The notes below the pieces were generated by a model, which saw nothing but the letters and a program-made list of their open reading frames with translations, was not told the DNA's origin and searched no databases. From Patescibacteria group bacterium (GTDB taxonomy: Bacteria; Patescibacteriota; Patescibacteriia; Magasanikbacterales; GWA2-37-8), in NCBI GenBank assembly GCA_022710645.1, contig JAKLGL010000001.1, forward strand, positions 407,296 to 471,295: a stretch of 64,000 bases of DNA, read 5' to 3'. The position numbers were made by a program, and so were the translations under genes. Positions 3,608 through 26,125 of the stretch are shown here, in pieces (the stretch's first letter is position 1; each line of letters begins with the position of its first letter).

Positions 3608-4706
3608 ACGATTGTCAAAATCAATCTTTGTGACGCAAGCCTCGAAATATTTCCTTTTGGGGCTTGTGTTTTTATTATTGGCTTTACCAACTTTGGTTTT
3701 AGCCGCCGTAGCCACACAAAATGTCACTATCACCATCAATAACAGTTCTTATCATTGTGCTAATGGTACTCAAGATTATGACGAAACCGGTATTGACTGC
3801 GGAGGGTCTCTTTGCGGAACTTGCGGTTCGCATTGTACAAATGGAATAAAAGATTTTGATGAAGTCGGAGTTGATTGTGGAGGTTCTTTGTGTCCGACTT
3901 GTAGTGGTGGGGGCGGAGGTGGTGGAGGAGGCGGTGGCGGTTCTCTGCCGATTCTCCTTTCTACTATCAATTTTTCCGGAATTGCTTATTCAAACGCCAA
4001 AATATTTATTTTACGCGATGGAATTTTGATTAATACTTTTTTTACCTCATCATCCGGAGCTTTTCAATATTCTTTAAATTCTATTACCGCCGGAAATTAT
4101 CGCTACACTTTTTATGCGCAAGACGCTCGCGGCGGATATTCTACACATTTGGTTTTTCCTCTAACTGTTGTTGCGGGAAACTCTTACCAAGTAAACAATA
4201 TCTTGATTCCGCCAACACTGTATTTCAATTCTCAAGAAATAAAACGCGGAGAAAAAATGGAATTTTACGGTCAAAGTGCGCCGAATTCAATTTTGTTTTT
4301 TGAACTGAAAAATTCAACTTCCGGAAGTACTTCCACCTTTCAAACTATAGCCGATCCTTCAGGAAAATTTTCTTATCTTCTTGAAACTTCCGGAATGATA
4401 GAGGGTAGTTATGAAATAAAAATTAAAATAAAAATTGCAACAACTGAAAGCGCTTACAGTAATTCTTTTCCTTTTTCAATAGGTGCTAAAACCGTAGAAA
4501 AACCGATTTCAACGACAAAATGTCCGGCTAAAGGAGATCTCAACGGCGATTGCCGTGTAAATTTGGTTGATTTCTCTATCGCGGCTTACTGGTATAAACG
4601 CACCGTCGCGTCGAGTTTTATAAATACGGAAAATTCTCAACTTAATGGCGACGATATTATCAATTTGATAGATTTCAGTATTTTGGCTTATTATTGGACG
4701 GGCTGA
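3600..4706 (+). CDS. Secreted dockerin-containing protein with duplicated Cys-rich motif and a poly-Gly linker
   Basis: AAGGAG RBS, overlapping the previous stop by 8 nt. It has a signal peptide, the repeats DYDETGIDCGGSLCGTCG and DFDEVGVDCGGSLCPTCSG, and G12 (nt 3905-3945). The C-terminus has two dockerin-type Ca-binding repeats, DLNGDCRVNLVDFSIAAYWY and LNGDDIINLIDFSILAYYW (the DxNxDxxxNxxD pattern). Confidence 0.7.
   Translation: MPKRLSKSIFVTQASKYFLLGLVFLLLALPTLVLAAVATQNVTITINNSSYHCANGTQDYDETGIDCGGSLCGTCGSHCTNGIKDFDEVGVDCGGSLCPTCSGGGGGGGGGGGGSLPILLSTINFSGIAYSNAKIFILRDGILINTFFTSSSGAFQYSLNSITAGNYRYTFYAQDARGGYSTHLVFPLTVVAGNSYQVNNILIPPTLYFNSQEIKRGEKMEFYGQSAPNSILFFELKNSTSGSTSTFQTIADPSGKFSYLLETSGMIEGSYEIKIKIKIATTESAYSNSFPFSIGAKTVEKPISTTKCPAKGDLNGDCRVNLVDFSIAAYWYKRTVASSFINTENSQLNGDDIINLIDFSILAYYWTG
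3901..3948 (+). repeat. Imperfect (GGN)n simple repeat encoding poly-Gly
   Basis: ggtggtgggggcggaggtggtggaggaggcggtggcggt lies inside the dockerin protein gene. Confidence 0.8.
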
Positions 4707-6461: not shown

Positions 6462-6911
6462 CTAAACATAGGACGGGGTTTGTTTTTTAATCTTTGCGCC
6501 GTTCTTCTTTTTTTCTTTCAACGGCGTAATTTTTTTACTCTTTAACCATTGGTTGTAATGTGCCGGACAATAACCACGAGACGTTGCCGGACGATCACAC
6601 CCTTCGGCTTGGCAGATTTTTCCTTTGTTGGTTTGTTTTTCAACAATAGGATGCTTTCTTTTGATCTTACGAAACGGACGATCCATTTCAAAGTCTTCAT
6701 AATGCGCTTTACAATAACCTTCGCTAACTCCGTTCAACTTACAACCGGAAACAAGACATTTTTTAAAATTAGAAAATAATTTCTTGATTTCTTCCGGCGG
6801 TTTCAAATATCCAAAATAAATCAACTGATAACAATTACGGCACACCCCTTTGGTTTTTGCCGGTTTTTTACCGCATGCAGCACAAACACCTTGCTCTTTT
6901 AGATTGTCCAT
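6462..6911 (-). CDS. Cys-rich protein with three tandem zinc-ribbon-like repeats (C-x2-C-x7-9-G[VY]C-x2-[CH]Y)
   Basis: AAAGGAG RBS. The repeats are CAACGKKPAKTKGVCRNCY, CLVSGCKLNGVSEGYCKAHY and CQAEGCDRPATSRGYCPAHY, separated by basic linkers, with a lysine-rich C-terminal tail. I do not recognise a family. Confidence 0.7.
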   Translation of the reverse strand: MDNLKEQGVCAACGKKPAKTKGVCRNCYQLIYFGYLKPPEEIKKLFSNFKKCLVSGCKLNGVSEGYCKAHYEDFEMDRPFRKIKRKHPIVEKQTNKGKICQAEGCDRPATSRGYCPAHYNQWLKSKKITPLKEKKKNGAKIKKQTPSYV

Positions 6912-6996
6912 TTTTTTCTCCTTTAAAAGAACTTTTTATTAAAAAAATACAAACTAATTTTTATTAATCAGTAACTATCAGCAATAAGCTAGTTAG

Positions 6997-7200
6997 TGCC
7001 CCCAGAGACCCGCCCGCCTCGGCTATGCCGAAGGCATGTCGGGCGGGGAATACTCACATCGTCGTCCGCTGGCTGGCAGACTTCCTCTTTGGAAAACCTT
7101 CGGGTTTTCCAACACCTTTCCTCTTCAAGAGAAAACTACCGTTTTCTCCCTTTCCCAGTTCGATTCTCTTCAGAATACAAATCACTAAAAAACTATTTTA
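6997..7200. ncRNA. GC-rich multi-hairpin structured element of unknown class (possible ncRNA, leader or tRNA-derived remnant)
   Basis: GC is far above its surroundings. It has three perfect 8-bp hairpins: gagaaaac-tacc-gttttctc, ggaaaacc-ttcg-ggttttcc (a UUCG loop on the plus strand) and cccgcccg...cgggcggg with an inner atgcc-gaa-ggcat. It starts with tgcccccagagac, a 12/13 direct repeat of the tRNA-Arg 3' end at 7231-7243. It also contains agttcgattctct, an inverted copy of the tRNA T-arm. Confidence 0.35.
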
Positions 7201-7230
7201 AATTATTTTTAAAAATACAATTTATCAAAG

Positions 7231-7302
7231 TGCCCCCAGAGAGAATCGAACTCCCATCCTCAGGTTCGAAGCCTGATATTTTATCCATTAAACTATAGGG
7301 GC
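7231..7302 (-). tRNA. tRNA-Arg (anticodon UCG), 72 nt, no encoded CCA
   Basis: I folded it manually. The acceptor is GCCCCTA/TGGGGGC+A, the anticodon stem is TCAGG/CCTGA with loop CTTCGAA (anticodon TCG), and the T-arm is GGGAG-TTCGATT-CTCTC. Confidence 0.85.
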
Positions 7303-7419
7303 AATATTTCCAAAATTGTAGCATGTTTTGCGAAAAAAATCAACCCTCAAGGCCTTGAAATAAAAAAATAAATGTGTTATGTTAATTTTATCATTAACCG
7401 TTCCTTAAGGAGGACAGTC

Positions 7420-7845
7420 ATGATGTCTTTTGGACAAATCGGTCTTAGTCGCGGCGTATTATTGCTTTTTGCTTCAGAATCTTTAGTTCAAAAGAAGGAT
7501 GCCTATGTGGATGTCTGTCAAAACGGAAAAACCGTTGGCAAGATTCTCGCCAAAGTCACACCATTGTACGATCGCACGAACGAACATTTCATCAAGTTCG
7601 AAGGTGTGTCCGCATTCCGCGATTGCGGTGCTTACTGGGAGCTTCATCTTGAAAACGACATCATCGTCCGTGCTACTGGTGAAAAAGCCAGTACGTCCGG
7701 CGAGCCTGCTATGTTGTTGGTATTTATCGAGAGTGGACAAATGCTCTGCAAAGTCACAGCTAAAGTTACAGCAGAGCGTGGTCCTACCGGTGAATATTTT
7801 CCGATTGCCAATCTCGCAGTCGAACAGGTCCATCAGGAAAAATAA
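7420..7845 (+). CDS. Hypothetical protein with an internal duplication, GC-rich (foreign-looking) gene
   Basis: AAGGAGG RBS 7 nt upstream of ATGATG at 7420; the ORF-track start at 7372 is unlikely. GC is well above that of neighbours. Two KVT-containing half-repeats (GKILAKVTPLYDRTNEHFIKFEGV / GQMLCKVTAKVTAERGPTGEYFPIANLAV). It is followed by a strong terminator. Confidence 0.7.
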   Translation: MMSFGQIGLSRGVLLLFASESLVQKKDAYVDVCQNGKTVGKILAKVTPLYDRTNEHFIKFEGVSAFRDCGAYWELHLENDIIVRATGEKASTSGEPAMLLVFIESGQMLCKVTAKVTAERGPTGEYFPIANLAVEQVHQEK

Positions 7846-7888: not shown

Positions 7889-8137
7889 TTTGTAAAATAA
7901 TTTTAATCTAAAATCTTAAATCAAAAATCTAAAATCGCTTCGCTTTAACGAAGAGTACCCTGTGCATAACTCTCTTGCAACTATTTCATTATTTTGCAAA
8001 AGCATTTATAATAAAGATAGGTCGAGTTTTTTATAACATGCTTGTCTATAAAAAATTACAAAACATTTTTTCTTGCGATCGCAAGATGAAAAAATATTTC
8101 ATACATAATCTCAAAAAAGAAAGGGGGTGCGCACAAT

Positions 8138-8245
8138 ATGAAAAAGAAAGCTACAAAAAAAATCGTGAAAAAAGCTAAAAAAGTAGTTAAGAAAGTAAAA
8201 AAAGTTGCTAAAAAGAAAGTTGCTAAAAAAGGCAAAAAGAAATAG
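8138..8245 (+). CDS. Lysine-rich 35-aa micro-protein (MKKKATKKIVKKAKKVVKKVKKVAKKKVAKKGKKK), not in the ORF track
   Basis: GGGGGTG RBS 9 nt upstream. It is a clean ORF of near-tandem KKV/KKA units, followed by a terminator hairpin (acacttcgc-tttaat-gcgaggtgt then a T-run) at about 8262-8300. Confidence 0.5.
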   Translation: MKKKATKKIVKKAKKVVKKVKKVAKKKVAKKGKKK

Positions 8246-26056: not shown

Positions 26057-26125
26057 GTCATTCCCGCCTCCGAGCGGGAATCCAGTGTCCAAATTATCCT
26101 GGATCCCCGCCTTCGCGGGGATGAC
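26057..26125. repeat. GTCAT...ATGAC mini-element (member 1), MITE/REP-like
   Basis: gtcattcccgcctccgagcgggaatcc...ggatccccgccttcgcggggatgac has two internal hairpins and terminal GTCAT/ATGAC. It is followed by gatgacac-tttg-gtgtcatttttt, a terminator-like hairpin. Confidence 0.55.

Follow-up and report, generated by a model that had tools for sequence, protein, structure and literature searches.

The anticodon loop and the T-loop of tRNA genes are the two classical crossover regions for integration. In the sublocation scheme of Williams from 2002, the tRNA att sites of tyrosine integrases are reportedly divided into class I, in the anticodon loop, and class II, in the T-loop. Small RNAs can also arise from tRNA 3' external transcribed spacers, e.g. 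3'ETS-leuZ of E. coli. RNA-guided elements of the IS110 and IS1111 groups encode a bridge or seek RNA adjacent to a DEDD recombinase, and the guides of this RNA are displayed on the internal loops of two stem-loops. As described for tycheposons, for example, elements that have integrated and degenerated characteristically leave partial tRNAs behind (bioRxiv 10.1101/2020.12.28.424599).

The locus described here lies in a window of 64,000 nucleotides, the whole stretch of DNA that was analysed, from a very small CPR genome; mobile DNA has seldom been documented in such genomes. A 234-bp segment directly 3' of a tRNA-Arg(UCG) gene is probably, at a probability of roughly 0.6, an att-flanked remnant or miniature of an element that integrated into this gene. 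The odd-looking island would then be explained mostly by a familiar process, tRNA-gene integration and subsequent decay, and it adds a new, very small case to a class of feature already known, the integration scar at a tRNA gene.

Setting of the Locus and Sample of Relatives

The GC content of the window is 36%, and its genes place the DNA in Patescibacteria/CPR. For the iPGM protein of the window, identity to Buchananbacteria and Paceibacterota MAG proteins does not exceed 64%; one source attributes the zinc-ribbon protein to a Candidatus Magasanikbacteria MAG, and the longest contig bearing the locus measures about 0.53-0.56 Mb. A scan of genome contigs with the neighbouring iPGM found no synteny with tRNA-Arg(TCG). 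Three contigs with an identical zinc-ribbon protein are 100% identical across the region and uninformative. More distant relatives were reached by three routes, i.e. the zinc-ribbon protein together with its 268-aa cohesin-like neighbour, a single metagenome scan using the 31-mer at the tRNA 3' end, and the endonuclease Q-like gene adjoining the locus designated L099. The locus is described on the minus strand, because the segment sits directly 3' of a minus-strand tRNA-Arg gene.

The tRNA-Arg Gene and Its Neighbours

The tRNA-Arg gene (anticodon UCG, 7231-7302, minus strand) is intact, has no encoded CCA and scores 68 bits as tRNA-Arg(TCG). It is the sole RNA gene that ARAGORN and Rfam found in the window, in which ARAGORN detected neither a tmRNA nor a second tRNA. 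Its sequence is 100% identical in seven related loci (L084, L085, L098, L100, L101, L102 and L114), and the L097 tRNA differs from it by one base. A promoter of the sigma-70 type is predicted at 7315-7343 on the minus strand (TTGATT, 17 nt, TACAAT, with a TG extension), and a matching layout is found upstream of the tRNA in relatives. No terminator-like site (GC-rich hairpin and U-tract) was found on either strand of 6912-7228, which also argues against the segment being an intrinsic terminator itself, and no promoter-like site was found between the tRNA and the zinc-ribbon gene, after which a bidirectional terminator-like site follows. Because neither a promoter nor a terminator lies between the two genes, the tRNA promoter probably also drives transcription through the segment, which would be transcribed passively together with the tRNA and the zinc-ribbon gene.

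The zinc-ribbon gene (6462-6911, minus strand) encodes 149 aa with a DUF5763 assignment and a sub-threshold Zf_WRKY19-like match. An earlier reading made from the sequence alone (the sequence-only reading) had proposed that the island could be a structured noncoding RNA or a leader of this gene. The leader half of that proposal does not hold, since each is found without the other: L084 has the gene and no element, L105 the element and no gene. The zinc-ribbon gene of L098 lies on the opposite side of the tRNA. The gene is present in the window, L084, L098 and L122, is absent from L105, L114, L100 and L102, and is a neighbour of the element and not a part of it. The 141-aa gene that also flanks the tRNA (7420-7842) is variable too, occurring in the window and in L114 but not in L084. 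A small hypervariable islet surrounds the tRNA. In L084 (5902-6003), which lacks the element, only 26 nt separate the tRNA 3' end from the zinc-ribbon start codon. There is no room for a promoter in 26 nt, and the zinc-ribbon mRNA of L084 is probably a tRNA-mRNA co-transcript that would be freed by tRNA 3' processing.

A conserved leader of about 200 nt (window 7940-8137) was observed upstream of a 35-aa Lys-rich ORF (8138-8245, plus strand). It contains the hairpin CCTGTGCATAAC, promoter-like TTGCAA/TATAAT hexamers, GATAGGTCGAG and the palindrome TTCTTGCGATCGCAAGA, and the same sequence blocks precede the Lys-rich gene in L084, L098, L099, L100, L102 and L121. The leader has no Rfam match and could be an undescribed cis-regulatory element.

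Composition, Repeats and Hairpins of the Segment

The inserted segment spans 6995-7228 and occurs once in the window. As the sequence-only reading had stated, it contains a GC island; positions 7000-7099 reach 63% GC against 36% for the window, and this region is the strongest non-coding GC island of the 64 kb. Few other GC islands are present. The only comparably strong one (3877-3968) is a run of 13 glycine codons in the gene of a 368-aa secreted-looking protein, and another (26061-26123) consists of two adjacent GC-rich hairpins, GTCATTCCCGCCTCCGAGCGGGAATCC and ATCCCCGCCTTCGCGGGGAT. Read along the minus strand from 7302 downwards, the tRNA-Arg gene is followed by an AT-rich stretch of 59 nt, an inverted T-arm 13-mer, three hairpins, a decayed T-arm, a GC palindrome, UCUCUGGGGGCA plus CU, and the native flank. 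Features of the segment are given on the minus strand unless stated otherwise.

The segment is bounded by an exact 14-nt direct repeat, AGTGCCCCCAGAGA. The proximal, attL-like core (7229-7242) consists of the last 12 nt of the tRNA and two trailer nucleotides, and the distal, attR-like core (6995-7008) is a displaced tRNA 3' end that reads UCUCUGGGGGCA plus CU, identical to the end of the tRNA. The sequence-only reading had given this repeat as 13 nt with a different boundary; an exact repeat exists and is one nucleotide longer, and the 13th base of the earlier version (c at 7009) is a mismatch. Also exact is the inverted copy of the T-arm noted in that reading, AGTTCGATTCTCT, 13 nt at 7157-7169 on the plus strand, which corresponds to tRNA positions 51-63 and is the exact complement of 7240-7252. 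Among 100 dinucleotide shuffles of the window made for each repeat, none contained two matches to the 14-nt direct repeat and none two matches to the inverted 13-mer. The AT-rich left part between the tRNA and the inverted copy (7170-7228, 59 nt) has no terminator, and only its first bases (GATAAA) are common to the short version found in L098.

Next along the minus strand lies the hairpin body, which the sequence pattern TTGGAAAACCYGAAGGTTTTCCAA represents. Hairpin 3 (7127-7150) pairs GAGAAAAC with GTTTTCTC over 8 perfect bp (7129-7136/7141-7148) and can be extended by G-U pairs. Hairpin 2 (7089-7112) pairs TTGGAAAACC with GGTTTTCCAA over 10 perfect bp (7089-7098/7103-7112), and its loop reads CGAA on the minus strand and TTCG on the plus strand, i.e. 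the UUCG cap noted earlier. A 6-bp hairpin follows at 7064-7081 (GUCUGC-CAGCCA-GCGGAC on the minus strand, GTCCGC-TGGCTG-GCAGAC on the plus strand). The linkers between these three hairpins are GA-rich. Three perfect stems had been recognised earlier, each given as 8 bp; two of them have this length, the middle one has 10 bp, and two further hairpins, at 7025-7037 and 7064-7081, had been missed.

The distal end of the segment is derived from the tRNA. In direct sequence comparison, positions 7048-7060 read GAUGUGAGU---AUUC against GAUGGGAGUUCGAUUC of the tRNA, a degenerate T-arm remnant that appears to be the decayed inner part of the distal att copy. The distal end is thus a partly decayed 3' third of a tRNA, which gives it its attR-like appearance. 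It is interrupted exactly between tRNA-like C60 and U61 by a GC palindrome of 39 nt (7009-7047, with no strand assigned), which has an outer 8-bp stem, CCCGCCCG/CGGGCGGG (7009-7016/7040-7047), and an inner 5-bp hairpin, ATGCC-GAA-GGCAT (7025-7037). The original downstream flank of the tRNA (6925-6994) lies beyond the distal core and is homologous to the flank after the L114 tRNA and the L105 distal core.

No credible ORF was found in the insert; a 32-codon frame starting with GUG was considered and set aside, as it is not conserved in L105. Rfam 15, run on the window and the region at gathering and permissive thresholds (E <= 10), returned only tRNA matches, and the best matches to other families were far below threshold.

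Empty Sites and Other Versions in Relatives

Comparison with relatives shows that the segment 6995-7228 is an indel. L084 and L104, in which the neighbour protein is 89% identical to that of the window, have no element. In L114 (neighbour protein 85% identical) the tRNA is continued immediately by a flank that aligns with the DNA beyond the distal repeat of the window and of L105, which makes L114 a precise empty site for both. In L105 (76%) a 15-nt fragment of the tRNA 3' end is followed by a homologue of window 7048-7146, which places the hairpin body at the same junction as in the window; the contig ends after the body. L098 has a version of 72 bp between 13-nt repeats, in which 9 nt separate the tRNA from the final ~12 nt of the body, and the GC palindrome and a second TCTCTGGGGGCAC come next, with only the palindrome and the repeat retained. 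L100 carries the downstream flank of L098 directly after the tRNA and is the empty site for L098. The search for the element elsewhere that had been suggested gave no second copy in the window and homologues in L105 and L098.

In the more distant L099 and L121, unrelated GC-rich DNA abuts a 3' half of tRNA-Arg, positions 36-72 starting at G36, which lies at the conserved flank. No intact tRNA was found within 9.5 kb in L121, and the 5' part of the element body was not found at that locus, only the lone tRNA-Arg 3' half, nor was it found in L122, whose sequence stops short of the locus. At L121 7650-9100, this decayed half stands beside GC-rich DNA whose product, a 338-aa protein, matches nothing in Pfam; a larger integrated element of a related lineage probably ends here. 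Rfam gave only tRNA matches on L121. A group I or archaeal-type intron, or a split tRNA, was considered for L099 and rejected, with no intron-model match and no 5' exon near the half in L121.

The orientation of the tRNA relative to the same neighbours also flips between close relatives, with one breakpoint at the tRNA 3' end. Opposite orientations are found in L100 versus L102 and L109, and in the window and L084 versus L098. The near-identical genomes at L100 2620-2740, L102 2660-2790 and L109 3030-3180 carry the tRNA-Arg and its promoter in opposite orientations, and their flanks form a mosaic and not a simple inversion. In L113 (2735-2764) and L115 (1657-1690) the tRNA is followed by 5 nt and then by a long palindrome, CCCGCCCCTCTTTTTTAAAAAAGAGGGGCGG, inside which both contigs end. 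Contig ends as such were not retained as a sign of mobility, as they are explained by the identical tRNA common to co-occurring strains.

Empty sites, different versions, foreign DNA and tRNA flips among these relatives mark the tRNA 3' end as a recombination hot spot, and, judged from the sequences compared, the end of tRNA-Arg(UCG) appears to be such a hot spot in this Patescibacteria clade. Insertions, deletions and inversions accumulate there, and the adjoining small genes come and go.

Probable Origin by Integration and Decay

The arrangement is best explained as an insertion at the 3' end of tRNA-Arg(UCG) by site-specific recombination, for which the enzyme would probably have been of the tyrosine-integrase type. 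The incoming element would have supplied its own copy of the tRNA 3' part, with attL (7229-7242) within the gene, and the tRNA could stay intact because this part was carried in. The original 3' end would have been displaced to the far side, where it would now form attR (6995-7008) beside the old flank. Decay would then have left an AT-rich left arm and a GC-rich right arm without a recombinase, the right arm comprising the three conserved hairpins, the decayed T-arm copy and a 39-nt palindrome that would have been inserted later. We infer this order, insertion and then decay, from the present arrangement.

Several observations argue for this origin. Direct repeats of the tRNA 3' end flank the insert, with the intact tRNA at one end, and relatives provide empty sites, L114 for the window and L105 and L100 for L098. 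A decayed T-arm directly inward of the distal repeat is what attP-derived homology would predict, and the GC content of the segment is foreign to the genome. An att-like scar of a lost integrated element was among the possibilities raised by the sequence-only reading, and it is the one that the empty sites, the tRNA 3' repeats and the other insertions and inversions at this tRNA favour. Integrase, recombinase and transposase domains were found neither in the insert nor among the 36 window ORFs scanned against Pfam, and because no integrase or recombinase was found the segment is classed as a remnant or miniature and not as an element. For a full-length parent element, IMG/VR viral contigs, GenBank phages and PLSDB plasmids (blastn for phages and plasmids) showed no similarity. 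In scans of viral contigs, neither the element junction nor the GC palindrome nor hairpin 2 was matched, the 23-mer of the tRNA 3' end matched only phage tRNA genes having an encoded CCA, and a 17-mer gave chance matches in high-GC phages. The empty junction of this site would read ...TCTCTGGGGGCAC|TAACTAGCTTATTG, and the circle junction of an excised segment would read ...GGCGGGCGGG-TCTCTGGGGGCAC-TTTGATAAATTG.

Some points sit less easily with a simple scar. Repeated loss through recombination between the repeats would give the same pattern among relatives as repeated gain. Simple integration does not account for the perfect inverted T-arm 13-mer. A model in which the direct and inverted copies were split halves of one 24-nt att copy, separated by an inversion, was dropped because the distal end already has a decayed T-arm of its own. 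In addition, the hairpin body and a compensatory pair in the palindrome suggest more conservation than would be expected of a dead scar.

Conservation of the Hairpins and Alternative Explanations

Window and L105 are 90% identical in the hairpin body, with 10 differences over 97 positions; in the adjacent flank 11 of 37 positions differ and identity falls to about 70%, and the neighbour protein stands at 76%. All differences in the body fall in loops or linkers or improve a stem, and no stem is disrupted. Hairpin 2 is identical in L105, hairpin 3 has the same stem and a different loop, and the counterpart of the hairpin at 7064-7081 reads GUCCGCC-AGUU-GGCGGAC, in which a U.G pair has become C-G and the stem has gained one pair. 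The GC palindrome is lacking in L105 and 96% identical in L098, where the only two differences form one compensatory pair (U-A to C-G) in the inner hairpin. With two or three sequences, pair-count controls have no statistical power. The segment folds moderately better than shuffled sequences (z of -3.1 for the plus and -2.7 for the minus strand), the outcome that the sequence-only reading had looked for with this control. That reading had also suggested an Rfam search and had counted both a missing match and missing conservation against its proposal; no family other than tRNA was matched, yet the hairpins are conserved in relatives. Of the noncoding-RNA half of its proposal, what may still hold is an RNA carried along in the tRNA trailer.

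These observations bear on a first alternative, in which the tRNA-Arg 3' trailer would carry the hairpin body as a functional structured RNA that tRNA 3' processing sets free. The 13-nt complement of the T-arm and the tRNA-identical 3' end might modulate the maturation of tRNA-Arg, or the body might become a processed small RNA. In a read-through transcript the inverted copy is predicted to pair with the tRNA T-arm and the 5' strand of the tRNA with the distal 3' copy; the inverted 13-mer can also close a cloverleaf-like fold of the element. Such an RNA could be expressed from the strong tRNA promoter, with no terminator or promoter in between, and is favoured by three stems that are unchanged or improved in a body better conserved than its flank, by the compensatory pair in the palindrome and by folding that exceeds that of the shuffles. 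It would also be compatible with an origin by insertion. However, the closest relatives lack the element completely, the short L098 version retains just the palindrome and the repeat, no Rfam family matches, and a search of 1.06 Mb of Patescibacteria loci with a covariance model of the body returned nothing beyond the two sequences from which the model was built. Covariation is powerless with so few sequences, and binding of a protein to the DNA would explain perfect palindromes just as well; the conservation of the palindrome could likewise come from recent transfer or template-switch mutation. The conserved hairpins keep a structured trailer RNA under consideration, and we regard it as unlikely.

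Quite improbable, in our estimate, is a broader reading in which the hairpin unit of ~170 nt is a conserved, undescribed module of a tRNA-Arg-targeting mini-element in Patescibacteria. Such a module could take two forms, a non-autonomous att-flanked element of ~220 bp that is possibly still moved in trans, or a trailer RNA that possibly acts, through its 13-nt complement of the T-arm and the 3' end it has in common with the tRNA, on tRNA-Arg maturation or on recombination at the tRNA. If the hairpin body were functional, it would be new, whether as an RNA linked to a tRNA or as a miniature integrative element, and the support for this is at present thin.

The segment could also be a decayed tandem duplicate of tRNA-Arg, a pseudogene with an overwritten 5' part, formed without any mobile element. 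The distal end, GAUGUGAGU-AUUC followed by UCUCUGGGGGCA, is indeed derived from the tRNA, and the 6-bp hairpin occupies the position of an anticodon arm. The body of ~100 nt, however, has no similarity to tRNA positions 1-44, and a duplication leaves the inverted T-arm copy, the foreign GC content, the clean repeat-bounded empty sites and the unrelated foreign DNA at the L099/L121 site unaccounted for, which makes this explanation very unlikely.

The last alternative, drawn by analogy and extremely improbable, links the segment to an RNA-guided mobile element, as what is left of it or as its non-autonomous derivative. The segment would encode a structured RNA with two target-matching segments for opposite tRNA strands that overlap at the core, in the manner of IS110/IS1111 bridge or seek RNAs or of a homing guide of a CRISPR-associated transposon directed against the tRNA. 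The inverted copy (tRNA positions 51-63) and the direct copy (61-72 plus 2 nt) do tile the tRNA with a 3-nt overlap (TCT), a multi-hairpin unit of ~170 nt lies at the insert end, and the first GC-rich part begins ~60 bp from the tRNA end. However, no genes for DEDD recombinase, TnpB, Cas12k or Tn7-like proteins and no Tn7-like ends were found in the window, the segments that match the target would occupy the two ends of the RNA and not an internal loop, none of the RNA families in Rfam, these included, matches, and the direct copy, being contiguous with the native flank, needs no explanation beyond that of a displaced target. A SINE-like remnant, also suggested earlier, fails on copy number and on the part of the tRNA that is copied, as there is one copy in 64 kb, only 3'-end pieces are present and no sign of retroposition was seen.

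Comparison with Known Systems

Set beside the described systems, the preferred reading of the segment as an att-flanked integration remnant can be placed among several kinds of small element. The resemblance to RNA-guided systems is best taken as an analogy; no DEDD gene was found, and the hairpins are perfect and lack the internal loops of IS110/IS1111 bridge or seek RNAs. SINEs and retroposons differ in that the locus holds tRNA 3' fragments only, single in 64 kb and without copies in 1.06 Mb of related loci. A MITE is not indicated either, as the T-arm copy and its decayed counterpart form the sole pair of inverted repeats and no other copies were found. The 39-nt GC palindrome taken by itself is, like MITEs and REP-like sequences, a clean small insertion (in the window and L098; not in L105), but unlike them it is not repeated in the window and has no target duplication. 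Its termini resemble the ordinary GC terminator stems of these genomes, and a REP-like family was set aside, as CCCGCC...GGCGGG stems elsewhere resemble ordinary terminators.

Like 3'ETS-leuZ, the element is structured and lies directly 3' of a tRNA that is predicted to be strongly transcribed, with no terminator between them. Unlike 3'ETS-leuZ, it is absent from the closest relatives and matches no Rfam family. With respect to the integration sites of tyrosine integrases, the tRNA-like block of the window and L105 starts in the variable/T-arm region, as in class II sites, and that of L099 starts at G36 in the anticodon loop, as in class I sites. Both differ from these classes in that no integrase was found and no symmetric core-binding half-site could be recognised near the crossover.

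The closest likeness is to tRNA-scar systems, i.e. tycheposon remnants in Prochlorococcus islands and CIMEs derived from ICEs. The present element differs from them in its tiny size (234 bp here and 72 bp in L098), in an identity block of just 13-16 nt with a decayed T-arm inside it, in its perfect inverted T-arm copy, in a hairpin body that is more conserved than the flank, and in that no parent element was found. It shares with tycheposon partial tRNAs and CIMEs an intact tRNA with a repeat of the tRNA 3' part at the opposite end, precise empty sites and a lost recombinase, as well as the repeated use of one tRNA and rearrangements around it.
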